Source: an uncultured virus (IMG/VR IMGVR_UViG_3300009605_000001)
Lineage: Duplodnaviria; Heunggongvirae; Uroviricota; Caudoviricetes
IMG/VR virus record: IMGVR_UViG_3300009605_000001
Reading direction: 5' to 3' (one strand)
DNA: 64,000 bases
Part shown: one piece after another, positions 26,657 through 56,900 of the stretch
Layout of the letters: each line of letters opens with the position of its first letter
How positions within the stretch are numbered: position 1 is the stretch's first letter
Notes under the pieces: model-generated
Database searches by the model: none
What the model was told of the DNA's origin: nothing
Seen by the model: only the letters and a program-made list of their open reading frames with translations
Translations under genes and position numbers: made by a program

Positions 26657-26929
26657 CTACTCTGGTTCTGGAATTATTAAGGTTAAATTTAGGCCAGTAT
26701 CTGTTGGAACTCTTTGAACAACAAACTCTTTAAATAAATTAGCCATAAAAATAGACATTAGTGCCTCACTTGGGAACGAAAGATTCAAAACCTTTTCATC
26801 CTTACCCTGAAGGGCTAGTTTAACAGTGTACTTCAGGCCGTGTTCCATGTCAGCCTCACTTCCTATTAACAAATGAGTCATGCTTTCTCCTTTACGCAAA
26901 GAAATAATCTGATTGTAAAACTTCCTCAA
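26657..26929 (-). CDS. Hypothetical protein
   Basis: ORF after the RNAP gene; probable start MTHLL after AAAGGAG. Confidence 0.6.
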   Translation of the reverse strand: MRKFYNQIISLRKGESMTHLLIGSEADMEHGLKYTVKLALQGKDEKVLNLSFPSEALMSIFMANLFKEFVVQRVPTDTGLNLTLIIPEPE

Positions 26930-29333
26930 GCATAAGCTTGCCCCGTGTTGGAACGTCGGGAAGTTTAATTCCTAATTGGTTTTCAACCTCCTTCTTGAAG
27001 TTTTCTAGTTGGTTTGTCTTATGAATCTTAACAAACTCTTCTCTTAGTAGGTTTCTCATATCATCTATATAATTAGCATGGCACCCGAAGGAATCATGAA
27101 TCATACAGAGGTCTATTATACCACAGTCTATCAGTCTGTCAATAGTTAAAAACATATGAGCAGCATCTAAACTGTGTATAAAGTTAGGGGAGATAGCTTG
27201 TAAAGAATCACGCGGAGCCACATCATTTGTCTTAACATAGAATATAAGTTCCTTCTTGTTAAACAGATGAGCAAGAGATCTCCTCTTCTGTTGTTTATTA
27301 TAGAGGTGAACTACTTTAAACCCACTGGGGGTTGTCCACTCAACGTGTTTGTTAAGCTTGTTAGCTTCTTCAATAATAGATTTTAAATATTGTTTGCCTT
27401 TGTTTGGTCCACTTAATGAGCGGTCAAGGCTAGCTTTAATAGCTCGGGCCAGCTCAACAATAGCTGCACCCTTCTTCTCACGAGACACCCAGTCGAGGTG
27501 TCCCTCTTCTTTTAGGTATCTCTGTATTCCATAGAAAGTAAGACCATACGGTTCACACATTGTGCTGCGCTTTGTTACCTTCCTATCAATTTTATTATCC
27601 CAAAACTCTAGAAACTCACGATACCAATCGTTGTCGCTACTAAAGTTAGTGCAATAATCAGTAGTAACATCAGCTACATACTGGTATAGATCGTGCGGTT
27701 CGTCTGAAGGAGTTACCCCAGTCAGCTTAGCAATATCAGTGTCGCCCATGATAGAAGACCAGTGTTGGTTGCCGTTACATTTACCATCGATCTGTACAGG
27801 TACATAACTCATACCATCTTTCCTAGTAATGTCAAAGATCATTGCCAATCTTTGGAAAGACTTGTTCTTCTTCTTGGAATCATCAATCCATTCTTTATTT
27901 CCATATGGATCTTGAGATATACGTTCAATCATGTCCCAGTTATCGTCAACCCATTGTATTCTTTTATCAAAGGATACTTTATCTTGATCAAACAGGTTAG
28001 CTAGATATATTTTCTGCCAATACCTACCCCTCTCGGTTATCTTAACACCATTAGCAAACCTAATCATCCCCCTATCTAGGTCAGATGATTGGGGGGACAG
28101 CAACTCACAGGTTGTGTATGCCCTGCCCCTGAAATCTAGGGTGTAGACATGATAGAAAAACCCCCAAGGAATAAGATTCTCAGCCAGCTGAAGACGTATT
28201 AACATCCTTCCGCGAGCTTGTTCTTGCTTATACCAATCACTCCAAGCTTCCTCTTGGCGTTGACACCAGATAGCCTGTTGTTCTTTTGACCCATCTTTAG
28301 GGTACTCCTCATTATACATGAATTCTTCGAACGAAAAGTAGGGTAGATTAGCTAGCCCAGTATTGTTCTTAAACAGGGATTCCATCACCTCTACTACTGG
28401 TTCATTGATAGACCACTCTGTTTTCATCATGTGATTCAAACCCTTAACAACCTTTAAAGAAGGGCTCGAAAATTTTTGGTCCCTTTTTTGGTCTCCAAAG
28501 AAATTAGATCTAAACTTCTGGACCATAGGTTTCCTTAGGTTGGTATGTATATACCCACCTGTAGATATTGTAGTATGGTCTTCGGGGATAGACAACATAG
28601 GTCTATATATTAGTGTAGAGTTCTGAAGAACATCGTGTCTTTTGTGTAGCTCTCTAAGAACATCGGGATGAAACTCAACCGATAGAAATTTCTTATAAGA
28701 ATTACCTCGTTTTATCATATGAGAAGTTAAGATAATTATATTAGAAGAGGCAGCTATCCTAAGCATGTTATGTCCGAAGTCATGCCTTTGTTTAGTTGAT
28801 AGCTTAACATTTTTGTCCATCTTATCGGCAAATGCACGGCATCTCTTAGGTGTCCAGTTCTTTATAAACTTAGATTGTCTTAACCAATCATCTCTGTTAT
28901 CTTCCTTAGCTCTTTGGAACGCAATAATATCACAAGCGTCATGAGATATCTGTGTAGCTAAGGTTTGTGCTAGAGGGGGGATAACTTTATCCTTTTCCCA
29001 CCTGTATCCCCAGAAGGTACTAGAGAACCAGCTTCTAATCACAGCTCTTATAGTTATGTCAGCCATCTTCTGCGGACCCAGCTCAAGTAAGGGGTACAAC
29101 CATTGAGGTGACTTACTTGATTGACACACCCTATCAATCCACTCCTGAAACACTTCTCTTAGTTCTACAACAGAAGAATCAATAAGTTCTTGTTCAGGTA
29201 TGCCCTCATCGGGAGCGCGCTCATAGTCTGACCAATATCTAGACTTACCATACTCAAGCATCTCTTGTTCATACAAGATCTGCGAGTTCTTTCTCTCTAA
29301 CTTAGCGTCATCAGTTAAGGTATCCCATTTCAT
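26892..29333 (-). CDS. T7-type single-subunit RNA polymerase (canonical; RNAP-1)
   Basis: DFRGRAY; motif A DGKCNGNQH; motif B RKVTKRSTMCEPYG; PNFIHSLDA; motif C IHDSF; 813 aa. Confidence 0.97.
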   Translation of the reverse strand: MKWDTLTDDAKLERKNSQILYEQEMLEYGKSRYWSDYERAPDEGIPEQELIDSSVVELREVFQEWIDRVCQSSKSPQWLYPLLELGPQKMADITIRAVIRSWFSSTFWGYRWEKDKVIPPLAQTLATQISHDACDIIAFQRAKEDNRDDWLRQSKFIKNWTPKRCRAFADKMDKNVKLSTKQRHDFGHNMLRIAASSNIIILTSHMIKRGNSYKKFLSVEFHPDVLRELHKRHDVLQNSTLIYRPMLSIPEDHTTISTGGYIHTNLRKPMVQKFRSNFFGDQKRDQKFSSPSLKVVKGLNHMMKTEWSINEPVVEVMESLFKNNTGLANLPYFSFEEFMYNEEYPKDGSKEQQAIWCQRQEEAWSDWYKQEQARGRMLIRLQLAENLIPWGFFYHVYTLDFRGRAYTTCELLSPQSSDLDRGMIRFANGVKITERGRYWQKIYLANLFDQDKVSFDKRIQWVDDNWDMIERISQDPYGNKEWIDDSKKKNKSFQRLAMIFDITRKDGMSYVPVQIDGKCNGNQHWSSIMGDTDIAKLTGVTPSDEPHDLYQYVADVTTDYCTNFSSDNDWYREFLEFWDNKIDRKVTKRSTMCEPYGLTFYGIQRYLKEEGHLDWVSREKKGAAIVELARAIKASLDRSLSGPNKGKQYLKSIIEEANKLNKHVEWTTPSGFKVVHLYNKQQKRRSLAHLFNKKELIFYVKTNDVAPRDSLQAISPNFIHSLDAAHMFLTIDRLIDCGIIDLCMIHDSFGCHANYIDDMRNLLREEFVKIHKTNQLENFKKEVENQLGIKLPDVPTRGKLMLEEVLQSDYFFA

Positions 29334-32000: not shown

Positions 32001-32003
32001 AAA

Positions 32004-32076: not shown

Positions 32077-32080
32077 AGCA

Positions 32081-37341: not shown

Positions 37342-37385
37342 CTGTAAAGACAGGCCACACTTGACTAATAAATAGTCGGTTCAGA

Positions 37386-37420
37386 AAAGCCCCCCTGAGG
37401 AATCTCACCTCAGAGGGGTG
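37386..37420 (-). terminator. Intrinsic terminator ending the first early unit
   Basis: CCCCTCTGAGG-loop-CCTCAGGGGGG followed by CTTTTCT on the minus strand. Confidence 0.75.
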
Positions 37421-37451: not shown

Positions 37452-38015
37452 CTACCACTTTACGCTGGCAACTGCCTTCTTTACCTCTTTGTCGGTTTCA
37501 TACAAAACCGCACACTTAGCAAACTCATTATCAAACCGTGATTCACAGGCCTTGATTGACAATTCCTTTGTCAGGCAGGGAATGGATTCGATAGTTATCG
37601 GATAACTCTGTATCAGTGTTTTCCCTCCTAAGGAGAGTCCGCATTTCTCACAGAGCCAAGTCGTAACAAACTTGCCATCAGAAGTCTTCGTTGTCTTGGG
37701 AGTTTCCAGTCTTCGCAGCAATCGAATGTACCGAAGGTTATTCGTGTCAAAGGATTCAATCATAAGATTGTCACCCTCAACTGTGAAACCAAGTTCGTCA
37801 CACTCTTTCTTTACGGAGACTGAATCAAGGGGGCGATAGCCGATGTAGGTGTGAAGCTTATCCACATCCACATTACCATCCAAAGAGATGATCCTAAGGG
37901 CTATGGTGCCTTCCTTGTTATTCACAATAGCATCCACAAGAAACGGGTTTCCGTCGGCATCCACTGCTTCACGCATGACATGCCTAGACGAGTGGTAGGT
38001 TTGTGAACCAGCCAT
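37452..38015 (-). CDS. Hypothetical early protein
   Basis: 187 aa, AAAGGAG RBS. Confidence 0.75.
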   Translation of the reverse strand: MAGSQTYHSSRHVMREAVDADGNPFLVDAIVNNKEGTIALRIISLDGNVDVDKLHTYIGYRPLDSVSVKKECDELGFTVEGDNLMIESFDTNNLRYIRLLRRLETPKTTKTSDGKFVTTWLCEKCGLSLGGKTLIQSYPITIESIPCLTKELSIKACESRFDNEFAKCAVLYETDKEVKKAVASVKW

Positions 38016-38135: not shown

Positions 38136-39968
38136 TCAGTCAATCGTGTCGAGATGGTGCATACGAATCACTGGTGGGATCATCTCAGCAATCTCAGCGT
38201 ATGATGGTCCACTCGGTGGCTCGACATCATTCGCTTCCCACAGAGGAGCCAACGTAGCCTCCATTGTGGGAATAATTCGCACCATGACATTACGAGCATT
38301 CTCAAAGAACCGCCCAACTCGACTTGGTTGAAGTAAGAAACCATCATGGTTGTCAAGTTGATGCCAATCTTGACTTTTGTTTTCAAGATTGAGCTCACTG
38401 TTGAAGTACGAATCATATATCGCGGCGAGGTGACAGCTAATCGATCCGAACATCTCAACCTCAAACGGTGTGTACGTTGCCTTGCCTTTCCTACCATTAA
38501 CAGAACCCCTAACTGTACGCTCTGGTTCTGTTGTCAGGCGGCTATAAGGCATGAAGGGAATTACTTGCCCATCACCACGAATCAACTCAATCATCTTGCC
38601 AGTGGTCTCGACGCAGTGCTCATTGGCATTACGTGAACGTTGTCCGAGAGATCTGATCTCCGGAATAACCTCATGCATAGCCGGAGCACCAACATTACGA
38701 ACCCACTTCTTGGCCACATCATACAGCTCTTCATACGTAACTGCGGCACGGAGTGTGCCCTTCTTGGTGAAGAGATGTACGAAATCGGGGTGTGTGGGCA
38801 CCCAACTCGGGTACTCAACATGGTCTAACAGGTAAACCCTGTCCTCTTGGTACAGCCGTTCCATCTTGTCTGGATCGAGACCCAAGAGGTGGGTTGCCAT
38901 GACAGCAACACCAGCCTCATACTGTCCGCCTCGTGCCAACCGTTTGGCGGTAGTACGTAGCGAATCATCCAACTCAATATCATTATCCATGGAGTTGATC
39001 CACCGACACATCTCGATATATGCGTCTCGCCGTTTGCCTCCGAAGAGATTACCCAGCCGCATACCAGACATACTTTTCTCAATCAACGCCTGAAACAGCT
39101 GCCCCGAACAACCCTGATCAAACTCTGCCGCAAGGGTTGTCTTCCCAGTTTGGGCATACTCTTTGCACTTCAACGCCACGCGAACGAGGCCGTATCCGTA
39201 CTTATCGATACACTGACTCACTGAGCCACAACTGAGAATTGCTTCCCAGTTGTTAGCGTGAAGACCTGCCATGCCATTCGTAATTGACCAGAACACATCT
39301 GGTGTACATTCTTCGGCATTAGCGAAATCAATAAGTCCCTTTGTATGGCTCTCTGTTTGCCATCCACAGTTACTCATATGATTGTATCGCCTTCCACGCT
39401 TATCGATACGCCTTACTGTTGGGTAGAACACTGAGTCGCCTACTCGCTTCAGTTCTTCAGCTACAGTTTCGAAACGTTCTGCATAGGCTCCACCATCCTT
39501 CGAATGGAATGCATCTGATCCCATCCATCCTTCAAGAAGCTCCATGCTGTAACGAAGCTGAGTATCAGAGGTCCACTGCATTGACTCTGTCATACGATCG
39601 CAGATCGGCATTACATTACTCGAACACCGAGTAACCTCAGGAGCCCAAAGGCCCGTCAGCTCTCGCCGTTCCGTCTGGATAATATGCTCTCGGTGTGGGT
39701 ACTCTGTCTGTTGCTGCCCAATGTAGAACTTACAGCAACTCTTAGCAATCTCGTGTTGCTGATCGTCTTCATCAGGGAACTGACGCTGTAACTCTTTGAA
39801 CTCCTGCGTTCCTTGCAGTTCCAGTTCTTGATGTGCAGGAATTACTAAGCGATCCACAGCATCTGACCCATCCCAACTGGAGGGCTTAGCGTGATATAGC
39901 ACACGCTTTACTAATTCCGAATCCCCCTCGACCAAAGGATTCACTAGGGTTGTGTTATCATATTTCAT
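38136..39968 (-). CDS. Divergent, N-terminally short single-subunit RNA polymerase homolog (RNAP-2)
   Basis: DKRGRRY, KGLIDFA, motif A FDQGCSG, DAY, motif B RTTAKRLARGGQY (K+8=Y) and motif C NHDGF, in T7 order; likely start MKYDN after AGGAG (about 610 aa). Confidence 0.85.
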   Translation of the reverse strand: MKYDNTTLVNPLVEGDSELVKRVLYHAKPSSWDGSDAVDRLVIPAHQELELQGTQEFKELQRQFPDEDDQQHEIAKSCCKFYIGQQQTEYPHREHIIQTERRELTGLWAPEVTRCSSNVMPICDRMTESMQWTSDTQLRYSMELLEGWMGSDAFHSKDGGAYAERFETVAEELKRVGDSVFYPTVRRIDKRGRRYNHMSNCGWQTESHTKGLIDFANAEECTPDVFWSITNGMAGLHANNWEAILSCGSVSQCIDKYGYGLVRVALKCKEYAQTGKTTLAAEFDQGCSGQLFQALIEKSMSGMRLGNLFGGKRRDAYIEMCRWINSMDNDIELDDSLRTTAKRLARGGQYEAGVAVMATHLLGLDPDKMERLYQEDRVYLLDHVEYPSWVPTHPDFVHLFTKKGTLRAAVTYEELYDVAKKWVRNVGAPAMHEVIPEIRSLGQRSRNANEHCVETTGKMIELIRGDGQVIPFMPYSRLTTEPERTVRGSVNGRKGKATYTPFEVEMFGSISCHLAAIYDSYFNSELNLENKSQDWHQLDNHDGFLLQPSRVGRFFENARNVMVRIIPTMEATLAPLWEANDVEPPSGPSYAEIAEMIPPVIRMHHLDTID

Positions 39969-40091
39969 GATAAACACTCCTGTGTGAGGGATTCTAAGGA
40001 TGACAGTACAAACACTCATCCTATAAAAGTGTCAAAGGCCTCCTCCGACCCGAAAGCCAGAGGAGGTATACTTCTCTTCTTCCAGCATTAC

Positions 40092-40607
40092 TCACTTGGA
40101 ACGCATGTTGTACCACATTCCAAAGTGTGAGTTAGCATCTTCCAGATCCTTCCACATCCAGTAGTCACCCTTCGCCTTGAGTACCAGATCTTCGAGGATC
40201 TTGATATGGATCTCTTTGGGTGACCTCTTATCCTTGAGACGGCATACATCTAGCAAATTCTGGATGTGCCGGGGCGCATCGTTGGCCGGATCACCCTTAA
40301 GGTGCTCCATCAGTCGCCAAGCAAACTGGTCTGCAACATCTTCTGCCGTCTTGTACGTGAAGTGACCAAAGTGAAGTTGCTGCAAGTTGTCACGAGTACC
40401 TGTAGCTATCCACACCCATAGCCTGAAGAAGGCCTCCAGAACCTCTTCGAGGGTTGTATCTTCCTCGAAGATAGAATCATGAAGTAACCGAATCTTCATA
40501 AGATAAGCGTCAGAGTCTACAGTTCCATCGGTGCCAGCGATAGCTTCCTTGACCCTCGCAAGGTCATCGGGACTATGCCAACAATCGAGTAACATATCGC
40601 CACTCAT
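40092..40607 (-). CDS. Hypothetical early protein
   Basis: 171 aa, AAGGAG RBS. Confidence 0.75.
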   Translation of the reverse strand: MSGDMLLDCWHSPDDLARVKEAIAGTDGTVDSDAYLMKIRLLHDSIFEEDTTLEEVLEAFFRLWVWIATGTRDNLQQLHFGHFTYKTAEDVADQFAWRLMEHLKGDPANDAPRHIQNLLDVCRLKDKRSPKEIHIKILEDLVLKAKGDYWMWKDLEDANSHFGMWYNMRSK

Positions 40608-40714
40608 AACTAACTCTCCTTGTGTTAGAGGTATGATTTACATCATCTCTGAATAGGACACACGGGATTTCTCGCCGTGTGTCCGTTTGGTTGTTAAGTC
40701 CAGTTAAGGACTGA

Positions 40715-40924: not shown

Positions 40925-41123
40925 AATGACCTCCTCGTGTTAGAGTTATGACCTACGCAGGTCATCTCAAAAGTCAGCACCACACCTTACGGCGAGGGCT
41001 GGTACACTGAGACAATACTAAAACCACTCTTCCCGACTTCCCCTCCATGAGAAGCATGGTAGTACTCTCTTAAGTCTCTCCGGATACCAGCGGTACCCGG
41101 AGAGGTAACTCGGCGTGATCACC

Positions 41124-41926: not shown

Positions 41927-44900
41927 CTAGTCGATTATTCCCGCATCTCTATCGTACCTTCTTTGTTGTGCCTTACGTTCTCTATCCTCCCATTCGGGAC
42001 TCCCCACAGGAGCTCCTACAAGGCTCTCAGGAGCTCGCTCAGGCCGCGTCTCTCGGATAGCCCCCACTATATCTCGTCTCATAGGACGCGGTGTGGGGGC
42101 AGCAGGAGCCTGTGAGGGGACGCTAGGAGCGGTTGTCTTAGGAGCCGGTGCAGGGGTTGCTGCAGGATTGGGATATTGCATCTTAGGAGTACCTGTAGCA
42201 CCGGAGGGATTATACCCCTGAAGGAGTTGTTGTTGGATTGCTGGTGGGAGGTTTTCAAACTTAGGTTCCCACCCTAGTTCTCTAAGGATTTCTCGTAAGT
42301 CTGCGGCATATTGGGGTAAATTAGATGTCTCAGAAAAAGAACCATAGGTTGCCCATTTTTTGTTTGATGATTTAGCACCCCTGCTCATTGAGTTGTTTTG
42401 CCTTTGCCACTCTTCGCCCATAGCGGAGAAGAATATAATCCTAGTTAAGGCATCGCCTATAACCGGAAGTGTTCTCATTAGCATTACCATTGATGCCCAA
42501 TCTGTATCTTTTTCATCATCTGTCCAGCCATCTATCAGCTTCTTAACATTATACAAGAAGGAGTTCATTGCACCCACTGGTACAAATCCAAAAGCTTCTC
42601 GGTGTGTGTTTGCGTAGATACCTACTACGGTTTCCATAAGCAAGCCTATATATCTACCAAAGTGTGGTAATCTAGCCATCATAAACAATGATTGTTTAAC
42701 CGGGTCTTCTTCCCATCCCTCGATGATATCTTCTAAAGGATATCCTGCAGCTACAAGCAACAGTGACATATACAATGAATCAACCATAGCATATGAAACC
42801 CAATGAAGGGCGTTTCGTCTAAGGCTGAATCTTTGGTTTCTTCGTCCAACTTGCTGAGAAGCAAATAATACAGGATACCGCCTAAAGGTTTCAAAGATAA
42901 GATCCCAACTACTATTGCCCGTAGCTGTATCAAAGGGATTAGGGTCGACTAAGATTTCATGGATATATCTTTTTTCTGCTCTTCTTAATCCTGAAATTAT
43001 ATCAAGGTATTGTTTGTATTCTGGATCTGTAGTAGCCCACTGAGGACCGCCTTCCCATGCCTCACCTTTATTCAAATTAGTTAATAATCCTCCTAAGCTG
43101 TAATACTCATCTCCCTTAGGACTGTTAACCATCTTAGCAAGGATATCTACATTATCGTTTGTCAGAACACCCTCATTCATTAAATACATAATGTTTGCTG
43201 CGTCTGTTCCGGGCAGGCCTACTCTTGACATTAACTTAGAAATAATCTTACGCCCATCTACAGTATCCCATTCTTTAGGATCAACCTGCTTATGTAAACG
43301 CAAGAACTCTTTTAGCTTACTGCCATCTCCACCAACCGTAGCTTGCTGTAACCATCCTCTAAAGATCGTAGCTCGTGAGGTAGCAATCATTTGATGCAGT
43401 ATTCCTGCAAGGTGCATATTACGCTCACCTAACCACTGAGGTAACCTTTGATACCACTCCGACCTTACATCAATATCTGGCCGAGCATAGTCTGGTATCC
43501 GACCTTGGTTAAATATTCGGATAATCTCTGCCATATCTCTTGCAACATTCTTTCTAATGTTAGGATCAAGTCCCATAAGAGGGGCAACGGCAGCCTTAAT
43601 AAAACCACCCATACTACCTCGACCAAGTAGTTGATCAATCATATTCATAGTATTCTCTACTACAAGCGTAGCCATAGTAAGGTTTGTGCCAAAGACAATT
43701 CTAACAACATCTGGAGCATATCTTGTAATAAAGTTTAGAGTTTCATCGGCTGAGTCTCTATTACTTTCCTGTTTACCTAAAATAGTATTATACTTGATCT
43801 CTAATACACCCATTGCTTTAGTAAGTATATCACTGTCTTTAGCACTTATACGACTACCGTCACTATTAAAAAGATTACCCATACCCAGTACATTCCTAAA
43901 GATACCTAACACATCGCCAGTAGTAGCCTTAATCCCATACTTATCCATATACATAGATTGCTCTGCAATCCTCTGCCCAAGATGTTTCATGATACCATCT
44001 GAAATTGTTTCTGGCCCCCAGACAAGCATATCTGCAATCGCAGGATTATTCATAACTTCGTGGACCGGAGGAATAGCCCAATCATTAGAGAAGTATATCT
44101 TTCGTCCAGCACCATTCATAATGTTTGCCACATGAACACTTACAGGACTGCTGATAGTAGGAGACTGCTGTCTTGCGGATTTTCCTTCAACGACCCCAAG
44201 AGTCGCAAGTCTGGAATCTATAGACTGACCTCTAAGTATATCTAGACGAGCTTGATTAGGTTTCTTTGCCTCAGCCCTATACTTACTCCACCAACCAGCG
44301 GTAATTCGTGTGTTTTCACTATTAAACCCCAAGTAGTCAGCACTAAACTTATTCTTTTTGTATCGCATATACCTCATAATTTGAGCTATAGCTGGTATAA
44401 CATAGTTAACATAAGTATTGTGTTGTTCAATAGTAGAAGTTTTATTTGTAAGTAAGCTACGGTATTCTTCATTTGTTTTAATACTTGCAAGTCTAGTTAG
44501 TGTGCTATCATAAGATGTGCTTCTTTCGCTCTGGCGTTGCCTCATTAATTCGGCCATTGCCATAATTTCTTTCCAGAGTTGTGGGTTCTTAGTTTCTAAC
44601 TCAGCTAACTCTTTTAGCCCTACTTCGGGATCAGCCAAATGAGGAAGCTCGCCCATTGCGTATAAAGTATAAGGACACATTCTTCTTGTTTTAAGATCTA
44701 TATTCTGAGATTCCGTAACAATACGATCTCCAATAACCTTACCCATTTCTTCTCTAAAGTTATTATAAACCGGCTGATCTTGTACCTTAGCATTCGCAAA
44801 CATAAAAGGAATAGCTTCATCAAAAGCTCTATCCATAACACCTACTTCGACCCCCATATGGTTTACAATACCTAGTAATGCAGCATAGTTAGTTACAATA

Positions 44901-47900
44901 TTATCTGCTTCCTTTCTTAGCTCTGTGCTGTTTACAAGCAATGCATCCGTGTACTCATACGCTTCTCCTGCCATTTGTTTTACTAACTTAGTCCACACTT
45001 CTTTAGCAAAGGTATCTCTTGTTTTCTCGTTTCCGGCAGTATTCCCTAATACCTGAGTTCTAAATCGAACGGTTGATTCAATAGGCCCAATAATATCATC
45101 GTAGACTCTTTCCATAGAGTTTCTAATCTCAGTAGATATTTGGTCAATCTGCTGAACAGAACCTAAGACATGGGGTATGCCATCCATATTACCCCAATGT
45201 CCTGCCATAGTACTCATTGAGTTGTCAATCATTGTTGATAACATAACAAGTAAAGTAAAGGGAGAATTCCAAGTAGCACCGGATTCAGTACTACCAGTAG
45301 CAAGCATAGTCATAAACTGTTTTACTTTAGAACCAATACCACCCGGCCTGTTAAAGTAAGGAAGCTGCTGTATTGCCTTAGTAGCTTCAGCCATAAAGCG
45401 TCCGTCATTCCCCCGCATCATTTTAGTCATATCCATCAGTATCTGTGTAGCAAGAATCTGTTGATCATGAGGAGTACCTTCAACGAATATTCTCTTAACA
45501 TCAAGAAGATCTGGACCATATGTTTCAACTGAGAAGTCCCCGCTTCTAACACTATATTGATTCTTAAGGTTTTCCCGACCTATAAGGAATTCACCTGTAG
45601 TAATACCAAGCGGTGTTATTTTATTACCGCCAAGAGTATCACGCCTATTCTCTAGCTGACCACGCTCCTTACTCAACTCCTCCCACTCCTTTTCAAACTT
45701 TCCGGATTCACTTTCAGGTGCCTCGGGAGTATAGAAGTTATGGTGTATAGCGTCCTCTAATTCACCCATTCTTCTCTTAACTTCATCAAGAGATTGTAGG
45801 GTAGCTAGTAATTCGTTCTCTGTATTCTCCACCGTAGATTGTTGTTGTGTTCCTTCTGTAGACATATACAGCGGTCCCATATCAGGGTTACCTACATCAG
45901 CTATCGTATTTCTACTTGTCTTGGTTGCATCCTGTCCTAGAGTTCTTCTGATTAAGTTAATGGCTCTTTCGTATTCAGCTGGCTCGGTTGATTTAAAGTC
46001 TGAGAATACAGAAGATACTCTATCTAATATCTTACCAATAAAGGCAAAGATTTTATCAATTATGGTTTGTGTCTTTGCAAAGAATCCCGCTTCTTCGGAA
46101 GTTAGAGGAGTATTGGCTTCAACCTGCCTTAGTAATTCTAAGGAATCGTGTACTAAATGATACCCTGTCAGGGCCGCAATAAACTCTTCGCCCGTAGTAT
46201 CGTTCATAATTCTAGCATACTCATCTTGAGCAGCCTTATTCCACTGGCCGTTATGGAAAGCCATAACAAGTTTCTTCAGTGTTCCGCCACCCTGTTTACT
46301 CCGCTCGCGTAAGAATAACGTTCTCCACTCTCTATAGTGGTATGAATCATTCTCGATAAACATCATTCTACCAATATGGCCAATCTCCTCAGCCACTAAA
46401 TACGCCACACTTAATGCATCTCTTCGCCCAACTAATTGATTACCAATTCTAATTGTATACCTACCACCTGATTTTTCTGCGGATCCTCTTCGCTGTTTCC
46501 CAGAATTATCAACCCACTCACTATCTAAGAATTCAAAATTAACCTCAAGAACCATATCAGGAGCATACTTAAACCACTTACCAAGAATTGCTCTTATCAT
46601 TCTAGCTTGAGCCTCAGAAAGGCGACCACCGTCAACAGCCTCTTTTATCTTAAGGGATAGTTTACCCAACTCAGGAACAGCAGATGAGAAGTTATCGTGA
46701 TTTCGAAGATCTCTGCTTTTAAGATGCAGCTCATTAAATAAATCCGGATCTCTATCAAACACATGAGTATCTAATACAGAAGCTAATGCCGCCTCTGCTG
46801 AAGAATGCATCTCGGTAGACATATCTTCAATATCATATATCTCCTGCAGATAAGCAAGGAAGTCAATAGTAATATCGGAATCACCAGAAACAGTACGTTC
46901 TCCCTCGCTAATCTGATCTACGTATGATCTAGCATCCCAATAAAAATCATTAAACTGTTGACTATCGGTTGCATTTAGGATTGACATAAGCTGATTAAAC
47001 TCACCCTTAACTCTAAGGTAAGCACTAGAAACATCAGCATCAAACTTTTCTTTTTCTACCGCTGTTTCTCGTGACATCAGGGGGAAGAATACTCTAACCT
47101 CGCCCATCTCAATATCGGGTTGCCGTAACATAAGCCCAAGTATAATAGCTCGTATGGTTGCTGGGTTTTTAATATTCCCATCAGTTAGTTGTAGTGTAGT
47201 TACAAGGAGTTCTTGAATAGTTCTATGCTCAAGATCAACCCCATCTGTATACACATCCATATAAGATTCTCTAACCCCAGTTAGATCATGAATAAGACTC
47301 AACCCTCTTGAGTTAGCTTGTGAGTGAGGGCTACTATGTTCCATTTCTATATTCCAAGTTGGAACAATAGTTTTAAAGGTTGTCTTTGCTTTTCCTTTTA
47401 CCGTCCCTCGGAACGGTCCTTCAGAGGCAGCCTCAATATCAACCGGCGTTGTTCGTCTAACTAATTCCTTTAGAATTTTTTCGTTAAACTCTGCATCTTC
47501 TGAAATATATTTGGTATATAGATCCATAGATGCTTCCGGCGATCTTTCATTTATCTCCGCAATTTTTCTTCTAATTGCGTCAGCCTGTATAGGAGATCCA
47601 GCACGCTCAAAAGCTAAACTCAAATCTTTCTCGGTAACCACTACTGGTTCACCATTAACTCGCGTGCCTCTCTTTTTTAAGGCAGCAGCAAACATACCCT
47701 CTTCACTCTTCTCACCGAGTTTTAATCCTTTAAGCAAACTATTTAAAGTCCAGTTTAGACTTTGTGTAATGTCACCACCTAAAAACTTAGAATCAGCGAG
47801 CATGTTGTTTTGCATTAAGTCAATACTAAGTTCAGCAACTATCTGCGCAGTATTAAGATCATTAGCAAGGATACCTAACTTTCTAAGGTCAAAACTATTT

Positions 47901-50900
47901 CCATTATAAGTAACTACCTTGCCTCCCGCTAATAAATGCTGCTTCAACATCTTTAATAAAGCTCTAGCTTCACTTCCGCTTACTGAACGAGTAGGCGAGA
48001 AATGCTTACCCTTTTTAAACCCCACTCTTCCTGCTGCTTCAAGTGTTCTTTCAACACCACCAATACCTACAATACGTTGTTCCAAGTCCATCGTAGTTTC
48101 AATATCAATAGATATAACATTATCTGTATCGTATATCCAATTAGGGTTGCTTTGGATTTCAATAATATTAGCTGCTTCAGCTTCATCTAAACCTAGCGAT
48201 GTTAAGATTTCTACTGCTTTGGTAGGATTATGTTGAGACCACATAGTTCTTTCTGGTGCAGCCCTAGCCATAATATTCATCTCAAGCAAACCTAAACTAG
48301 ATAGTCTCTTCATAGCTGTAGTAATTGGAGAGATTAAAGACTCAATAAAGAAGGGTAATGCATTAGGTCTAAGTCCAGCATCTGGTCTATAATAATTAAT
48401 CCAGTCTACAACTCTAGGTTTAATATTACCAGATGAACGAGAACCATCAACAAGCATATGAGCAACGGTGTGTCCTGATTCAACACGATCTACTATAATC
48501 TCCATTGCTTCACTTAAGACTCTTTCTCTGTTCATCTTTTCAGTTTCACTGTAGCCGAAGTAATCAGCCATCTCTTCAGCATCAGATCGAACTAACTCAG
48601 GCTTACCTTCGGCATTAGATCGATAGCGACCTGTTGGCTTGTTGGTACGCATCGCGGTTTCTATTCTTTCGATAAAAGGATAGTTCTTATGTGACGAAAG
48701 CATCAGTAAAGCACCCATTGGTGTAATACCGAGTTTCATGTTTGTTCCGATTACCGTTCTTGGAACTCTCATAAGCATAGTAAAGGGGCCACCCATAGGA
48801 TTACGTAAAATCATTTTATCAGTACGTTCATCCTTCGTTGGCTGCTGCTGTATTAACTTAACAAGGTCATTTCTACCCTCAACACTCTCTACAATAAAAT
48901 CAAAGGAGAATACAGGATCATTTGCTAGTACAGCTTTCTCTCTAGCTACATTAATAATAGCTTCTCTGTGATCTGGAGGAATAGCGTTAAAGGATTGTAT
49001 ATCTCTTTGATTAGCAATAACTCTTAATTGTTTCTTTAGTGCGGGCTCCTTAACAATACCTATATATGTTTCTATAGCTTCAGATATATACCCATCCCAC
49101 AGTACTCCTACAAGAAACTCCAACTCATCCACAGACTGAACAAGTAAGGGATGTATGGCCGTCTCTTCTAGTTTAATTGTTTCGCCCGGATTAACCCCCT
49201 CTTCAATTATAAAGTGCTCTGTAGGAACTAAGCTTTTTTTCAAAGCTTTGTGAATAAGGGTTGGTCCGGATAAGACAGAGAATGGATTATTCTCCGAATA
49301 TGGACTTGTCAGGATATCATATAGCGTTCTATCTGCTAAGTCTGGATTTAAAATACCAATTTCATGTCCCTTAGTTTCCATAAGTAAGGAAGACATCTCT
49401 TTGTATCTAATATCCCGAGATAATTGGAACAGCGCGTGGAATCCTTCGAGGTATGTATTACGGGCTTGTAGTAGTTTCTCTTCGTTAGTTAGTCCTTTAT
49501 CTCCATAGCGTACAGCAGAAATGATCTGGTCCATTTCATGTTCAAGTTTTTGATCAAACCTATATACTAAATACAAGTACGGTACCATTTCTGGATCAAG
49601 CATCTCTGCCTCAAAGCCACGTTCTATTGCCCACTTACTCATCTTCATCTCAACAACATTAGCTACCATCTCAGGTGCATTAGCATCTAATCCCATAAGA
49701 TAGTCTAGATAATCAGACTTAACATCTGGACCCATTGGAAGAGTTTCTCTATTCCAAGGTTTCTCGAATCCTCTACTAGTTACTGGAATTAAGTGATCAG
49801 GGTTTTCTAAGGGTTGGTCTAACATAGCCGATACTTCTTCAATAGGACTCATCATCTCTCGTTCAGCGGCATGATAAGCTTTATTCTGAAGGTATAGGTT
49901 GCCCTTATTGTGATAAGGCATTCTCCTAGTTTCAGGAGCCCAAGACATGTATCCCCTTGGTTTGTCTGTAGACTCGAATACCATATCTTCTGTATCGTGT
50001 CGTAGTTCTGTCATTGTATGTTCTGCGGACCCTCTGAAGGTCATAGGATGTCCTGCGACTGGGACCAGTAAACCTATACCCTTAGAGAAATAATCTATGC
50101 TTGCTTGGTTTCGAGAACCATCAGCATTCCTAACACTATCTTGTTGTAGTCTTTGCGCATTAGTATGATCTATAGCAGCTTCTTGAGAATGCTCCCACCA
50201 CTGACTCAATACTTCGGCTTCGAGTTCATCCATATTATCTTCAGCTTTATATTTTGACAGAGGCGGCTTCTCGGGTTCTGTAACTCTAAGAAGCATTTCA
50301 TTTCTCATCATAAGAACAGCAATAGTATGATCCATTCTCTTGTGCCACTCCGCTACTTCAGCGTCATTATCAAAATCAACCATTCTCATTATGGGGTTGC
50401 CATATTTATCTAACCTTACCTTCCCATTTTTATCCCTAACCGGAATCTTTTGATGAGGATTATCTTCCATTCTCCACTGACCCAACGGAGATTCGCCTTC
50501 TACGTCTACAAATACTTGCTTACCGTTTACATATTCGTAGGGATTTTCAGACCACTCCATGATCTTTCTACCAATCTTAGCAGGGTTATCCCAATCTTCA
50601 TCTCTAATCTCTTCTGCTACGAAACTTTTAAACGCATCTTGATTAGTTTGGATTCTAGCAAACATCGTGTTGTGATGGTGTCTATTCATATTAGAACTTG
50701 CAGAATAGGTTCTATAACTCTCAAGACCGGGTAAGAAGATTTGATACAGAATAAAGTTCTGAATTCCAAGAAGATCTTCTTCATTAAATCTCTGGTGATT
50801 AGTTGCTGCTTGTGCCTTTAATACATCTACAGCAACTCTGAACCCCGTAGAGTTTACTGTATTTAATGCTCTGAATAATTGATTATGTTTCCAGTGCATA

Positions 50901-53900
50901 CCCTTTGGTTGCAGTAATTGGCCAACCTCTTCCCTTTCAGCTAAAGTTAGCTTTCCTCCTTCTCCCGACTTTGCCCTAGCATCTGCTTTCCTAATGATTG
51001 CGTCAGCTTTCATCAACCTACTATTCTTATACTTCTCCTTAAATGCTTCTACAGTCATCTGAACTCTTTCGCCATCCGGTCCTATCATCATCTCACGCTT
51101 AGCTAACATAGCAATATTTAGATCCAGTTGTCGGCGTAAATAATCTCTTTTCATAGCGGGGTTATTTTGATCTGTTTTCTTAATCTCCTTGTTCCGCATA
51201 CTCTTTACAGTTGAAATCCAATCTGTTATATGCCTATCTGTCATGTTTTCGTGCATCGACAGAATTTTTCTTGCTTCTTCCCGAAGACCCTCAATACCCA
51301 AAGCTACATCAATAACAGCAGCGTTCTCACCCGCTATATGGTCAAATATAGAATGTCCAAACAAAGCCATAACATGTGATATACCTTCAGATTGATCCTT
51401 AAAATTAAAACCAAACTCTTGCCTCAGCCTAGTCAGGATACCTACAAACATTGGATCGGTTTGTAGTTCTACCCAGCCTTTCCATCCCATAGTATATAGC
51501 CTACGCATAACTTCTGGTTTCCAGAATTCACGCATCAGCTTCATCTTCCTAACCATATCAGGATCAGAGCCTTCATTACTAACGTAATCAGTATACTTAG
51601 TATGATCATCGATTCCCAACGTAGCTAACTGATCATAAAACGTAACCATTGGAGAGAGAAGTTCGCCATATTCTGGGTGTGCTAAAGCCTTTCTTCTAAC
51701 GGTTTCAGCAAAACCTAAACCAGCTCTGATATAATAATCTTCAGCCTCAATAGACATATTCATTTTATTCCTTAACTCACCCATAGCGGTAATAGCTGCT
51801 TCGCTACCGAGACTTAGAATCTTAGTTACAAATAAACCATTAAACTTCTTATCCAAGTAAGTCTTTGGTGAAAGGATCCTTTTATAGAACTCTGGGTTTT
51901 CCCAATACTTTGGCCCAAACTCTTTATAATGTTCTTTTGCATAGGCTTGTTCTGCTTCGGTAGCCTGTTGAATAACATCATTGGCTAATCCTTCTAAGTG
52001 CATGTTCATGCTTTCTAAAGCAAGTATAGAAGAAATACCACTCATTGGAACAATAGTAGGTAAGCCTGTAGTAAGCTCAGGGTGTATCATTTTAAAAGCT
52101 GCATCACCCTCTGAAGTATAGACTAACCCCGGACCAGCCGCCCAACGAGCATCATGGAGGAAAGCATAAGCAATATTTGCTGTATCTAATAGAACCTCAG
52201 AAAGAATATTCTTAAGTTCTTCTCTAGTAGTAATTCTATCGTTTAGTCTTACATTAATAATAGGAGGCAATAACCTAGCATCTGGTTGAAGACTTCTAGA
52301 AACAGGTCTACCCGGCACAGCACCATCTTTATCTTCTAGATAAGCGTTGTATTCTATAATATCGTTCTCATCAATCTCTTCTGTAAAGATAAACTCTAAT
52401 CGTTTCCTTACAATAGCATCTTCAATCACAAGAGCAACAGCCTCAGGTCGTTCTGGAGCAAAGGAAGTCATGTGTCCCCGTAACATCGGGTGTGTCCGGA
52501 CTGTCTCTCCTTCTTGCGGCTCATCAAAACGATTCTCTTCTTTTCTTTCTGATCTATATTCTGGGGATTTTCGTCTCTTGGTAACTATTTCTTTAGTTTT
52601 TAGTCTGGTTACTAAAGCAAAGTCAACCAGTTCCCAACCAAGCCGTCTTGCTGGTTGCCAGCCCCGAGTACCGTCCCCCATACTAATGATCTCGTCTCTA
52701 GTAATTAGGGTGTGTTCATTATCACCCTCTGCAAGCCTATCAAGAATTATACTAGCTATTCTATCTAGGTCTTTTAAGTCTTCTGGAATCTTAAAGTAAG
52801 CATATATATCTTTCTTCTGTCTTTGAGATTGCATAAAGAGTACTTCTAATTGCTCAACTATACCCTTTCTAACCTCCTCAAGATATTTCATCTCTGCTTC
52901 TGCTCTTGATTCCGGATCATCTAGATCAAAGGTAATTGTTTGGTCAAGATCGGGAGAAAGATTATCTGTTAAATCAATTAGGAAACCATACTGATTAAAC
53001 AAATCATCATCGACTGCTCTCGACGCTTTCATAAGTCTATCGGTAAACGCAATGGCAGTATATAACCCAATCTTAGATTTAGGATCTCTATCATAAACCA
53101 TAACATCTTCTTCTGTAGCCCTAGTTTCAGCATTCTTTGCTATTACTGCCTGATGTGCCGTGTCTCGTTTTTTGATAAAGGTTACTAATCCTTCATCCCC
53201 CTTGAAGTCATGCAACAGACTTTTTAAAAGGTTCTTAGGAAATCCACCTTCCCCTGCTAAAGTAAGGGCTCGAACATCCTGTACAAACCCCCAATCTGTT
53301 AGATCTGGGCTAACGAGAGTCTTCCCTTCAGCTTCAAGGCGGTTATTGATGCCCGAGATATATCTAAATAATCCTAACTGACCTTCTTCTGACTCGAAAG
53401 CCTTAAAGAGTTTGTGTATAATTTGCCTTGCTTCTAGTTCGTTAATACGGCCATCCTGAAGTGCCGTCCTAATTTCTGCAACCCATGAATTAGCTTCGTG
53501 GATTCTCCACTTCTCCCCCTTTTCCTCAATCCTCTGAAGAACCTTTTGAACCTTTGCATCACCTTCTTTCGCTACAAGTCTCCGTCCTCTAATGCGGCGA
53601 ACTAAGTCTGTGAGAGACTCTTTTGAGATTGCTTTAAGATCACCATTAGCTCTCATTATTCTACGAGTAACTAAGGCAATAAGTTTATCTAATCTAACAA
53701 ACAAAGTATCATACTCAAGACTCAAATCTTCCATCGTTCTGTTACTAGGAAACTCCTCGCCTTCTGCATTAACAATAACTTCTCTAAAGACTGCATCATA
53801 GATACCATCTGGGAGACAACTATCAACAACGAAGATTGGAACCAATCCTACTTCAGGATCTAAGGCTCTACCCCACGGTCCTTCAAGTACAGATATTAAT

Positions 53901-56900
53901 TGCGAATGAAACTCTTGAAGTGCCATCAACTCTTCTGCTAATGTAAATGCATACTCTTCAGGAACTATTCCTCTATCTATACTTTCTTTGTTTATCGCGG
54001 TTTTGTTTGCAGCTTCAGTATTAGTTCGATCAATAGCTGGAGCTTCTGTAGCTTGGTTAATCCCCCACTGAGAAGCAGTAATTGGCCTGTTACTTACACG
54101 ACTCCAATTAACATCTTTGAAGTAGTTCCTCTTAATAGACTTTATATATGTCTCTCGTTCTTTAGCAGCCTCTTCAAATATAGCTAATGCTTCTTCCTTA
54201 CTATAAACAATTGGATCCTCATCGCTATCTGCTCTCTCATCTATTTCTTTCTTAACCCTGTCTTTGGTAGCACTTTCAGGTAAGAACGCTCCTAATAAGT
54301 CTTCAGCAGAAATAGTCTCTGTGGTTTCGAGTTTCTTTGTTAATACATGTCTTCGTATTGTTAAAGTCTTTAGTTCTTTATTACGATAATCTAATACTGC
54401 CCTGATTGTTTTCAGCTGATAAGACGCAAAACCATATTTCCTAGCCATATCTAGTTTGTATCTTAAGGATATCTTTTCACGCTTTCTATCTAACCTCTTC
54501 ATATCCTCTTCTAATTTCTCCAATTGTCTATATTCATCTGAAGGTTGAATTACCTTAGTAAATATTTCATTCTGCATTCCAATAAGACCCAAAGCTAATG
54601 CTCTTAAGTCATCAAGCTTAACCCGCCCACTCTTTATACCTTCTAGGAGACTAGCTTTATTTTTTTCATTACTCTTTATAGTTTCCCATGTCTGTACAGC
54701 CTCTTCAAGATCGGCCCATTCTTCAGGAGAAACATCATTCTTATCCATTTCCCCCTTTTGTCTCCACTTTGGGTGTTTCCCTGCTTCTGCTTCTGCCGCA
54801 ATCGTATCAACAAAGGTTTTACTTAAGGTGCCAACTACTAGAGAAAGTTTAGATATCCTTTTACCCTTTTCACCTACATACTTTGTATCAATAGCATCTC
54901 GTATCTCTTTAACCTTTTCAGTTAACTCACCGATCTCCTTCTTTACGTCTCTTAAAGCTTCACTATCGGATTCAACATCCTGCCACGCAGCAATACTTTC
55001 ATCAAACTCGGAGATTAACTCGTCCATTTCAGCAATAAGTTCGTCAAGTTTATTCCTTATTTTTGGATCGGTAGTTCCTTCTCGTTCTTCTTCAAGAGCT
55101 GCCTTAAGGCTTTCAGCTTCCTCTTTCTCTTTTGTTGTTTGGACAACTGCGGATTGTTGCTCTCCTTCTTGTGCTCTAAGACTATCTATCCTAGCGTTTA
55201 CAAGACCCTCCCCCTCAAGATCTTTCTTTCGCCATGCTTCCTCTTCTTCAGTTAGTTTTTTGTCGGCAATAATCTTCTTAGCAATACGATCAGAAATCTC
55301 CCAGTCAGTCTCTGGAACCTTATCAGTTACCTCCTTGATCTCAGCATCAATCTTTTTAATAGCTACAGTAAGTTGCCTAACTGTTTCCTTCTTACTTGCA
55401 AAATCTTCAAGTTCAAACAACTCTTCTACCGTAGTAACTTTTTCTCTGTCTATCTCAACTTTTTCCATACCCTTTTTTCTCTTGTGAGATATTTTACCAG
55501 TCTTAGAGTGCTTCCAATAAAAACCCATACGAAATATTTCACCAGCAAAGGATTCTACTATACCGGTAATTTGTGCTTGTATCTTACCCTTCCTCTCAAC
55601 TTTATCTTGTATCCCCGCCATTGCCTTTTCTCGTTCAGCTTGAGCTACTCCAGCCTCCTTTAGTCTCTTGGCTCTTTTTCTCGCCGCCCTCATTAGGCTA
55701 ACCTTACGTCTAAGTGTAGACGGTTTTTTTGGAGCTAGCTGTGGTGACTCCTTTATCTGTTTTTTAATAATACGGTCTACTGCTTCTTTATGCTCATTAT
55801 ATATCTTCTCTTCTTCCTTAGTTAATGTCACATCACCTCTTTTTTTAATAGCAATATCAACTAAGACAGAATCTTCCTCCTCCTCCTTCGCTTGAATTAA
55901 AGAGTCAACATCTTCAGCCTTTTGTTTAAGTCTTTCTAACTCTGTTGTATTAGCCTCTAAAGAAAGTTTAAGTTTCTCTTCCTTTTCTCTAAATTTTTCC
56001 TCAACCTCAACCTCAATATCATGAACTACTTTAAGCTTTTCTGCAGCTGTGGCTGTATCAAAATTAAGTCCTTCTTTATCCATCCTCACACGAACCATAC
56101 TCTCTACATTATCATCAACATATATTTCCCAAAGATCTTCATCAGAAATTTCATCTGTTTGATTAAGCCACTCCTCTGGGGTAAAGTTAGTTCCGTTTTC
56201 CTCATTCAACTTACGTACATATCTTGCCACCCGAAGCCTAGTTTTTGCTATAGCTGTACGTTCTCCTAGTTGTTTAGCTAAAGTCTGGGCTTCTGGTCCT
56301 CCTAATCTTTGAATTAGTCTATTAGCAATCTCATCTAGAAGTACATCATCAGATATCTTCTCCCCATCCAAATCATTTTTAATTTCTTCTAACAGACTAA
56401 GAATACTGGTTACATCATCATATGTATTAACCCCGTCTCTGATCTGCCAAGGATCAAGAACAAAACCAAGAGGTCCATCCATTAAATCATTTAAGTCAAT
56501 ATCTCCACCTTCTTGTCGAATAGAGTTTAAGGAATCAACGACTGAATCACCTAACTCATAATGCTCTATAGCTGCTAAGATAGGATTATCACTACCCCTT
56601 GCGGCTGCCTTCCAAGCTTCTGTAATACTAGACCTAAGTCTAGCACCAAGTGGAAGACTCATAATACCTTGACCAATTATACCACCAGCTGCTGAAAGAG
56701 GAGCGTTTACTGTATACTTCATAGCTGTTCCAAGGATTGGGTTTGCTACGACAGAGAACACAGCCTCCATCTTTGCTTCAGCCCAGATACCACCTAAATC
56801 ATACTCATCAATAAACCCTCTTTTAATTTTCAAAGTTTGGTTTATACCTTCAGCTAAAGCACCCTCAACGAAACCCTCTCCTGCATTAAGAGGAGAACTA

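Follow-up and report, generated by a model that had tools for sequence, protein, structure and literature searches.

A truncated second homolog of T7-type single-subunit RNA polymerases in the small-gene block of an uncultured T7-like phage

The window analysed here, a stretch of 64,000 nucleotides from an uncultured virus (IMG/VR record IMGVR_UViG_3300009605_000001), represents a divergent marine T7-like podophage in which every gene was found on the minus strand. A canonical T7-type RNA polymerase (RNAP), termed RNAP-1, was encoded together with a gp4-type primase/helicase, a family A DNA polymerase, a ribonucleotide reductase, and portal, scaffold, capsid, nozzle and fibre proteins (Table 1). 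RNAP-1 itself shared only about 27% identity at best with the phage polymerases in GenBank. Upstream of RNAP-1 along the direction of transcription, open reading frames (ORFs) of 218, 329, 1430 and 5359 amino acids (aa) were followed by a block of small ORFs. This block contained the gene of a second protein, RNAP-2, which is the subject of this report and is homologous to T7-type single-subunit RNAPs. The homology, the polymerase fold, the conservation of the catalytic residues, the truncated architecture and the pairing with a conserved neighbouring gene are demonstrated below, and a function in phage transcription is then considered.

The longest open frame of RNAP-2 (38136-40019, minus strand) would encode 627 aa, and the second Met of this frame is Met18. 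The full-length relatives of the protein shared the N-terminus MKYDNT at this second Met in the alignment, and an AGGAG sequence was located 8 nt upstream of its ATG (39968-39966). The in-frame ATG at 40019 was without a comparable ribosome-binding site, and the N-termini of the relatives stopped short of it. Because of the AGGAG spacing and the shared start of the relatives, a product of 610 aa rather than 627 aa was assigned, and the Met at 39968-39966 is, judging from the sequence, likely the true start. The coordinates proposed by a first-pass annotation of the window, 38136-39968, agree with this product, and its estimate that the protein was about 200 aa shorter than RNAP-1 corresponds to an actual difference of 203 aa (610 and 813 aa). 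The frame was uninterrupted, and a single ORF was present in the full-length relatives too. Identical copies of the protein occurred on 24 contigs, and loci with 100% identity were recovered in searches of viral and metagenome contigs.

The relationship of RNAP-2 to known polymerases was evaluated with a family profile. When 1.84 billion representative proteins were scanned exhaustively with HMMER, seven metagenomic relatives were obtained (E 7e-125 to 9.5e-5), which were 19-40% identical to RNAP-2 in the alignment. Six of them were about 600-640 aa long, and the seventh was a 334-aa fragment. The window protein and these relatives formed the 8-row alignment from which the profile was built and the column counts were taken. 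Against the sequences of the PDB, the profile matched T7 RNAP in two co-linear stretches (E 3.4e-7), mitochondrial RNAPs at E 6e-5 to 7e-4, and gp16 of phage N4 RNAPII at E 7.9e-4. Single-subunit RNAPs made up 17 of the 21 PDB sequences listed at E <= 10, and the remaining four were Mx1 at E about 1. Moreover, the family was aligned to T7 RNAP by hhalign with 95.8% probability (E 7.4e-9) over 442 columns, covering family residues 109-579 and T7 residues 338-849, and to RNAP-1 with 91.4% probability (E 9.2e-7) over 355 columns. The Pfam RNA_pol family (PF00940) was matched individually by six of the eight members, with a best E of 1.5e-6. Two short matches were obtained with the window protein itself: 36 residues of phrog_2166, annotated as "N4-like RNA polymerase", as its single PHROG match (E 1.2e-3), and 42 residues of RNAP-1 over the DxRGRxY block in BLASTP (E 0.007). 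The first-pass annotation had described the protein as a highly divergent T7-type single-subunit RNAP and had named a significant profile match to the T7-type RNA_pol family as a check. Such a match was obtained once the relatives were added to the profile, and the homology is backed by both profile and structure comparisons.

No match to RNAP-2 was found by tblastn in 50,697 GenBank phage records, and two divergent members of the family (P0007 and P0008) gave no match to GenBank phages either. A word-indexed protein search returned only RNAP-2 itself, and a profile search of the same database gave nothing further. In bacterial and archaeal genomes, 44 pattern matches were obtained, of which none was confirmed.

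Every catalytic motif listed in the first-pass annotation was recovered by reading the sequence and the alignment columns, in the order and at the places given there. In the DxRGRxY block, which was covered by seven members (one of them a fragment), the Asp was present in six of seven, both Arg in all seven and the Tyr in five. The two residues that had been proposed as the catalytic Asp pair, D284 in motif A and D542 in motif C, aligned to D537 and D812 of T7 RNAP and were each conserved in all eight members. D284 was situated at the end of a predicted strand (281-284), and D542 lay inside a predicted strand-turn-strand (538-546). The motif-B stretch named in the first-pass annotation, RTTAKRLARGGQY, begins at 38957; its Arg, Lys and Tyr were each invariant (8/8). 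The R-x3-K-x7-Y spacing of this block, which fell outside the hhalign alignment and was compared by eye, was the same as that of R627, K631 and Y639 in T7 RNAP. N307, D315 and Y317, further positions invariant in the family, were also kept in RNAP-2. In T7 RNAP, Y639 is the residue that selects ribonucleotides. Since the matching Tyr is invariant in the RNAP-2 family, an RNA rather than a DNA polymerase is indicated.

The fold was examined with an AlphaFold2 (AF2) model computed from the 8-row alignment. The superposition on T7 RNAP that had been suggested together with the annotation gave, in VIA-align, a Z of 22.2 and a root-mean-square deviation (rmsd) of 6.7 over 419 residues (model 91-603, T7 263-880). 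A further superposition had Z 20.8 and rmsd 4.2 over 369 residues. The values of Z were 18-20.7 for mitochondrial RNAPs, 13.3 for N4 mini-vRNAP and 12.6 for N4 RNAPII gp16 (model 224-603). Only T7 or mitochondrial RNAPs were among the Foldseek matches listed, with a best E of 7.9e-8. The right-hand fold of thumb, palm and fingers in the RNAP-2 model thus superposes on that of solved single-subunit RNAPs.

The model and the alignments also defined the truncated architecture of the protein. The structural alignments began at model residues 91-97, opposite T7 263-270, and the hhalign alignment began at residue 109, opposite T7 338. About 90-108 residues therefore stand where T7 RNAP has an N-terminal domain of ~265-340 residues, and the bulk of the promoter-binding domain, which the first-pass annotation had described as apparently missing, is indeed absent from the aligned ranges (T7 263-880 in the model, 338-849 in the profile). 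In T7 RNAP, this domain bears the AT-rich recognition loop and the intercalating hairpin. The N-terminus of RNAP-2 was predicted to consist of helices up to about residue 86, followed by an unstructured stretch of low confidence, and no hairpin was predicted there by AF2. Furthermore, the distance from the motif-A Asp to the motif-B Lys was 58 residues in RNAP-2 and 94 in T7 RNAP, and the thumb was shortened too. A beta-hairpin predicted at residues 484-499 was shorter than the T7 specificity loop, and its residues varied among the relatives. By its place in the model and in the hhalign alignment, this hairpin is a candidate counterpart of the specificity loop, and it may be a putative promoter-reading element.

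Table 1. Positions of the features of RNAP-2 and of its surroundings in the window; positions in related loci are given where stated.
Feature	Position	Strand	Description and basis
RNAP-2 coding sequence	38136..39968	-	610 aa plus stop; minimal T7-type single-subunit RNA polymerase homolog
Shine-Dalgarno AGGAG of RNAP-2	39977..39981	-	8 nt upstream of ATG 39968-39966
Short N-terminal region of RNAP-2, residues 1-108	39645..39968	-	AF2 secondary structure, VIA and hhalign ranges
DKRGRRY	39384..39404	-	DxRGRxY block, equivalent to T7 DWRGRVY (D421-Y427); aligned to T7 and RNAP-1
FDQGCSG, motif A	39102..39122	-	Catalytic Asp is residue 284 of 610 (301 of 627); aligned to T7 FDGSCSG (D537)
RTTAKRLARGGQYEAG, motif B (O-helix)	38910..38957	-	Arg, Lys and Tyr are R338, K342 and Y350
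Predicted beta-hairpin, residues 484-499	38472..38519	-	Strands E484-490 and E493-499 (AF2); opposite T7 ~740-770 (hhalign)
SCHLAAIYDS (AAIYD within)	38409..38438	-	Site of the family SADxxHSxDG block; aligned to T7 NFVHSQDG
NHDGF, motif C	38337..38351	-	Second catalytic Asp is residue 542 of 610 (559 of 627); aligned to T7 IHDSF (D812)
187-aa protein	37452..38015	-	Conserved downstream neighbour of RNAP-2; candidate cofactor
171-aa ORF	40092..40607	-	Upstream of RNAP-2; without Pfam or PHROG match
Intrinsic-terminator-like hairpin	37390..37418	-	11-bp stem, then CTTTTCT; closes the RNAP-2/187-aa pair (consensus scan)
TATTTATTAG	37365-37374; L007 6703-6712, L013 9590-9599, L014 2748-2757	- (window)	Conserved element
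Sigma-70-like promoter TTTACA-18-TATAAT	37348-37319		11/12 consensus; counterparts in relatives by eye
manA RNA motif (Rfam RF01745)	36280-36475	-	Full-length, 79 bits (gathering 55.2), E 1.9e-18
tmRNA-model match, tRNA-like domain only	36087-36168	-	82 nt, 51 bits (gathering 47)
55-nt direct repeat	35717-35771 and 36481-36535		Copies 91% identical; each just upstream (minus strand) of a structured RNA
Four stem-loops	41826-41926, 41460-41624, 40925-41123, 40608-40714	-	Before the first four small ORFs
5359-aa giant ORF	41927..58006	-	Upstream of RNAP-2; hallmark of the AG-10.1 group
RNAP-1, canonical T7-type RNA polymerase	26892..29333	-	813 aa; Pfam RNA_pol E 7.4e-82; phrog_414 E 7.8e-159
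gp4-type primase/helicase with Toprim domain	22502-24211	-	Pfam/PHROG
Family A DNA polymerase	20131-21828	-	

The surroundings of the gene were compared in ten related loci (L007 and L009-L017) from viral and metagenome contigs, which represent at least four lineages and carry RNAP-2 homologs 31-39% identical to the window protein. In all ten, the RNAP-2 homolog was directly followed on its 3' side by a gene whose product was homologous to the 187-aa protein (25-34% identity). The set of small ORFs that separates the giant gene from RNAP-2 differed between lineages, and none of the ten loci contained a BLASTP match to the 171-aa protein at E <= 1e-4. Of the two flanking proteins that had been put forward as possible partners, the 187-aa protein is thus retained through its constant adjacency, and the 171-aa protein is dropped for lack of a counterpart. 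A model of the 187-aa protein was of moderate quality, with a predicted local distance difference test (pLDDT) of 68.6. A complex prediction for RNAP-2 and this protein (score 0.00, mark 0.32) weighs neither way on binding. In the L007 relative, an RNAP-1 homolog was present about 8 kb downstream of the RNAP-2 homolog. The identity between the window and this locus was 72% for RNAP-1 and 39% for RNAP-2; hence, RNAP-2 has been retained but has evolved much faster than RNAP-1. Fast evolution of this kind is typical of early genes.

This class of gene has already been described in print at the level of annotation. A survey of marine Autographiviridae reported an additional RNAP of ~650 aa beside the typical RNAP of ~800 aa in 23 phages of group AG-10.1 and in 17 of group AG-14 (Commun Biol 2025; PMC12361551). 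According to that survey, the extra RNAP of the AG-10.1 genomes is placed upstream of the typical RNAP and downstream of a gene of 3274-5566 aa, amid small genes of unknown function; these genomes are unusually large, lack the gene for single-stranded DNA-binding protein (SSB) and have no cultured member; and the authors suggested that the extra RNAP was acquired horizontally and that different genes are transcribed by different RNAPs. The layout in the window was the same: an 813-aa RNAP that lies upstream of the replication genes, a 5359-aa giant gene with a weak RNase_H signal, and the shorter RNAP downstream of this giant gene amid small genes of unknown function. In the annotation and tree given by the survey, as far as its accessible part goes, nothing defining differs from the window gene. 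What is added here is the truncated architecture, the conservation of the catalytic residues, the conserved 187-aa neighbour and the His-to-Ala change of the window copy. The survey was the only report found in a literature search for characterised minimal or second T7-type RNAPs, and that search returned no biochemical or structural study.

With T7 RNAP (883 aa; PDB 1cez, 1h38, 8dh5 and others), RNAP-2 shared the polymerase core and aligned DxRGRxY, FDxxCSG, HDxF and NLL...QDxY blocks, whereas it was about 270 residues shorter and only about 12% identical in the structural alignment. The mitochondrial RNAPs (POLRMT, Rpo41) have the same core fold and are T7-type enzymes that rely on separate initiation factors. 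However, they are about twice as long as RNAP-2 and carry large N-terminal extensions, and homologs of their factors were not found here. N4 RNAPII, composed of gp15 (269 aa) and gp16 (404 aa; PDB 6dt7), totals 673 aa and resembles the 610-aa RNAP-2 in having a truncated N-terminal domain and thumb and in being an additional, non-principal polymerase of a phage with several. Unlike this gp15/gp16 heterodimer from an N4-like phage, RNAP-2 is one polypeptide and belongs to a T7-like phage. It was also nearer to T7 RNAP than to N4 RNAPII, both in the profile comparison (E 3.4e-7 against 7.9e-4 for gp16) and in the superposition (Z 22.2 against 12.6), and N4 gp15 was not among the family-profile matches listed. 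According to published work, N4 RNAPII is truncated in its N-terminal domain and thumb; it binds single-stranded DNA only, shows no specificity in this binding, and is brought in by the single-stranded DNA-binding gp2 with the help of gp1 (PMC4496689). No homologs of N4 gp1, gp2 or vRNAP were detected in the window by family scans with Pfam and PHROG, in which the gp1, gp2 and gp50 sequences were not directly compared. The small proteins neighbouring RNAP-2 matched no Pfam or PHROG family.

On balance, the interpretation towards which the analysis leans is that RNAP-2 is an active, cofactor-dependent transcriptase of the early or middle phase, with the 187-aa neighbour as the first candidate cofactor. 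An active RNA polymerase is favoured because the catalytic set is conserved, the frame is intact and the gene has been kept beside RNAP-1 across deep divergence. Its catalytic activity, its use of ribonucleoside triphosphates, its timing, its template, and the need for a cofactor and the identity of that cofactor are what we infer. RNAP-2 would consist of a polymerase core alone, with a shortened thumb, a palm, shortened fingers and a short helical N-terminus. As RNAP-2 is without the N-terminal elements of T7 RNAP, it is probably unable to locate and open duplex promoters by itself. It may need at least one helper protein, or a template that is pre-melted or structured, in the way that N4 RNAPII needs gp1 and gp2 and the mitochondrial RNAPs need their factors, and the conserved 187-aa neighbour would be the first candidate for such a helper. 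Phage transcription might then proceed in two stages, in which RNAP-2 would be produced either earlier than RNAP-1 or independently of it and would transcribe a subset of the phage genes. The sequence observation of the first-pass annotation stands in full, and its interpretation stands in part; its suggestions of single-stranded or hairpin templates and of a primase role are speculative.

A more specific form of this proposal is offered tentatively and is itself rather doubtful. RNAP-2 and the 187-aa protein would form a two-component minimal system, a single-chain counterpart, within a T7-like phage, of N4 RNAPII with gp2; among active single-chain enzymes of the T7 family, RNAP-2 would be the smallest. 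The partner, for which weak PUR-like and dsRBD-like hints of nucleic-acid binding were seen, would supply promoter recognition or melting, and the system would serve an early or middle gene class apart from that of RNAP-1. RNA manufacture and synthetic biology rely heavily on T7-type polymerases, which are also a model of promoter finding, opening and reading by a single protein. If the proposal were true, a natural single-chain enzyme of 610 aa without the promoter-binding domain would help to define the minimal catalytic core and would show how a partner can take over promoter specificity, as happens in mitochondria and phage N4, and an abundant uncultured group of T7-like ocean phages would run a two-polymerase programme.

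Several observations weigh against the reading of RNAP-2 as an active transcriptase with the 187-aa cofactor. Taken alone, RNAP-2 matched no Pfam family at E <= 1, including PF00940 RNA_pol and RPOL_N, and no PDB sequence at E <= 10 by phmmer. It was one of the two family members out of eight without a Pfam RNA_pol match and, on the evidence of its sequence, is the most aberrant member of the family. In the column equivalent to T7 H784, His was present in seven of the eight members and Ala only in the window protein, which is also without the SAD block next to this position. Moreover, YE was found where T7 RNAP has YG. Both replacements, of YG by YE and of HSLD by AIYD, read as the first-pass annotation had them. 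The quality of the AF2 model was moderate (pLDDT 67.4, predicted template modelling score 0.64), and the fingers including the O-helix were its worst part (pLDDT 33-45 for residues 311-385). The early status of RNAP-2 was deduced from gene order only, and no repeated motif in the window split an RNAP-2 regulon from that of RNAP-1. The synteny of RNAP-2 with the 187-aa gene is partly expected from common descent. For the 187-aa protein and its family, no sequence match was found in Pfam, PHROG or the PDB. Its best fold matches, to a double-stranded RNA-binding domain (dsRBD; best Z 7.1-7.5 in VIA, residues 96-171) and to Pur-alpha (best Foldseek E 0.02, probability 0.3), lay in the chance range. 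The ESM Atlas matches of the same protein were in the chance range as well (scores below 0.9, TM about 0.3) and named no family.

The departures of the window protein bear directly on an alternative in which RNAP-2 of this phage would be a non-catalytic paralog, either in decay or put to a new use, that might act as a DNA- or RNA-binding regulator or as a decoy and would keep the fold but not efficient polymerase activity. In addition to the missing Pfam match and the loss of the otherwise conserved His and SAD block, the C-terminal tail was unlike that of most relatives, and the much faster evolution relative to RNAP-1 would be in keeping with decay. This alternative was nevertheless judged unlikely. 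The frame is intact, identical copies are carried on 24 contigs, and both catalytic Asp, the motif-B Arg, Lys and Tyr, and N307, D315 and Y317 are all kept. T7 RNAP with the H784A substitution is active and is used in Y639F/H784A enzymes; therefore, the loss of the His alone is no argument for inactivity of RNAP-2. The change from His to Ala in this block is, from the sequence, probably why the window copy escapes detection by Pfam.

In a further alternative, a role in replication, RNAP-2 would synthesise primers, or would transcribe so as to open an origin, instead of producing mRNA. T7 RNAP acts at the primary origin and mitochondrial RNAP primes mitochondrial DNA, and the minimal architecture without a promoter domain would suit unspecific initiation on single-stranded or structured DNA. 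The binding of N4 RNAPII to single-stranded DNA only (PMC4496689), the lack of an SSB gene in the AG-10.1 phages (PMC12361551), which suggests unusual replication, and the element TATTTATTAG, which lies about 90 nt past the gene pair in 14 of 18 loci and could be origin-like, point in the same direction. However, the phage already has its own gp4-type primase/helicase with a Toprim domain, so that a second primase is unneeded, and the RNAP-2 gene is distant from the replication module. The variable hairpin predicted at the position of the specificity loop fits sequence-specific promoter reading better, and a priming role was considered quite unlikely.

The gene upstream of the small-ORF block was examined for a connection with RNAP-2. 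The 5359-aa protein gave a weak RNase_H_2 match (PF13482, E 1.2e-3) and was 47-53% identical to its counterparts in the relatives, and its C-terminus was located upstream of the RNAP-2 homolog, at a gap of about 2 kb, in every related locus that extended that far. T7-type internal-core/ejection proteins were not at their usual place between nozzle and fibre, and the giant ORF together with the 218-, 329- and 1430-aa ORFs may stand in for them. In the survey, an RNase_H (PF13482) signal was reported in eight AG-10.1 giant proteins and an RNA_pol domain in four (PMC12361551). The latter domain and the spacing of about 2 kb would accord with a machine like the N4 vRNAP, in which RNAP-2 is packaged or acts with the giant protein as injected early machinery that reads hairpin promoters. 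The four stem-loops that precede the first four small ORFs (Table 1) could be cited in its favour as well. However, these stem-loops, for example TGACCCTTGTAGGGTCA followed by CAACCCACAGGAGG, were located 12-18 nt upstream of ribosome-binding sites, and this position fits RNA processing or stability at least equally. They are candidates for sites of RNA processing or stability, or else for unusual promoters. No RNAP domain was found in the giant protein of the window by Pfam, PHROG, phmmer against the PDB, or local HMMER comparison with T7 RNAP, RNAP-1, RNAP-2 and the family profile. No longer fused form of RNAP-2 was found among the proteins of 1125-3210 aa that the search covered, which is weak evidence, and there was no indication of packaging. 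An injected machine was regarded as highly improbable.

Downstream of the gene pair, a series of non-coding elements was identified. The conserved element TATTTATTAG occurred exactly once in each of 14 of the 18 loci inspected, as a single-copy non-coding element, and was situated about 90-100 nt past the stop of the 187-aa homolog in the window, L007, L013 and L014. It was followed by small hairpin repeats of the GGCTCCGCC type, with three copies at 37340-37240. Directly past the RNAP-2/187-aa pair and one 92-aa ORF, a cluster of structured RNAs was found at 35.5-36.6 kb. It contained a manA RNA and a match to the tRNA-like domain of the transfer-messenger RNA (tmRNA) model. The latter element read GGGGGUG...GGUUCGACUCC...CGCCUCCA and had a G3:U70-type pair, with no tag reading frame evident. 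T-arm-like motifs of the form GGTTCGAnTCC were observed near 36250, 35700 and 35535. Neither these motifs nor the tmRNA-like element was called a transfer RNA (tRNA) by ARAGORN. The 55-nt direct repeat contained AACTCTATGG(G/T)AAGG, which is reminiscent of T7-type promoters; this short pattern was not enriched in the window.

The position of this cluster raises the possibility that RNAP-2 is dedicated to it, as an analogue of a specialised small-RNA polymerase that would transcribe the manA RNA, the tmRNA-like domain and the T-arm-like elements. The repeat, with its T7-promoter-like AACTCTATGGGAAGG, stands ahead of two of the RNA elements, although it was present in only two copies and the AACTCTATGGGAAGG pattern was not enriched. 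In addition, the sigma-70-like promoter lies upstream of the cluster, and therefore the host polymerase would be sufficient for its transcription. Such a dedicated role was rated very unlikely, and the broader early or middle transcriptase was retained as the preferred explanation.

Promoter motifs were also sought across the window, and none of them defined a promoter class for RNAP-2. No multi-copy promoter of the T7 style was found in it by exact 12-mers or by seeded 22-mer clustering. AACTCTATGGGAAGG was not enriched in the window (5 matches, 2.4 expected; 5 were reached in 9 of 100 shuffles). TTTATTAGAGA was present on the coding strand in four exact copies (4889-4899, 7744-7754, 15642-15652 and 57210-57220, minus strand). 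With at most one mismatch allowed, nine matches were counted against 2.9 expected, and nine were reached in none of 100 shuffles. Two of the copies shared 18 identical bases, GATCAGTTTATTAGAGAC. Three of the four exact copies were frame-checked by hand, and all three were in frame within coding sequence. As a candidate recognised in the sequence, TTTATTAGAGA may represent a phage-polymerase promoter core, assignable to neither RNAP-1 nor RNAP-2.

The base composition of the small-gene block was distinct from that of the remaining window. The G+C fraction was 0.48-0.51 at 36-42 kb and about 0.40 elsewhere, and at third codon positions it reached 0.49-0.62 in the block, compared with 0.27-0.39 for RNAP-1 and the late genes. 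A weaker trend in the same direction was observed in L007 and L013. The early regions of the relatives contained their own repeated hairpin elements in the corresponding region, and the repeated hairpin element of the relatives was not found in the window. A match to the type II hammerhead ribozyme (41500-41592, minus strand; 39 bits, gathering 37) was located before a 111-aa ORF, shortly past the giant gene. Furthermore, two adjacent phage tRNA genes, tRNA-Leu(UAA) and tRNA-Arg(UCU), were identified at 31926-32077 on the minus strand.

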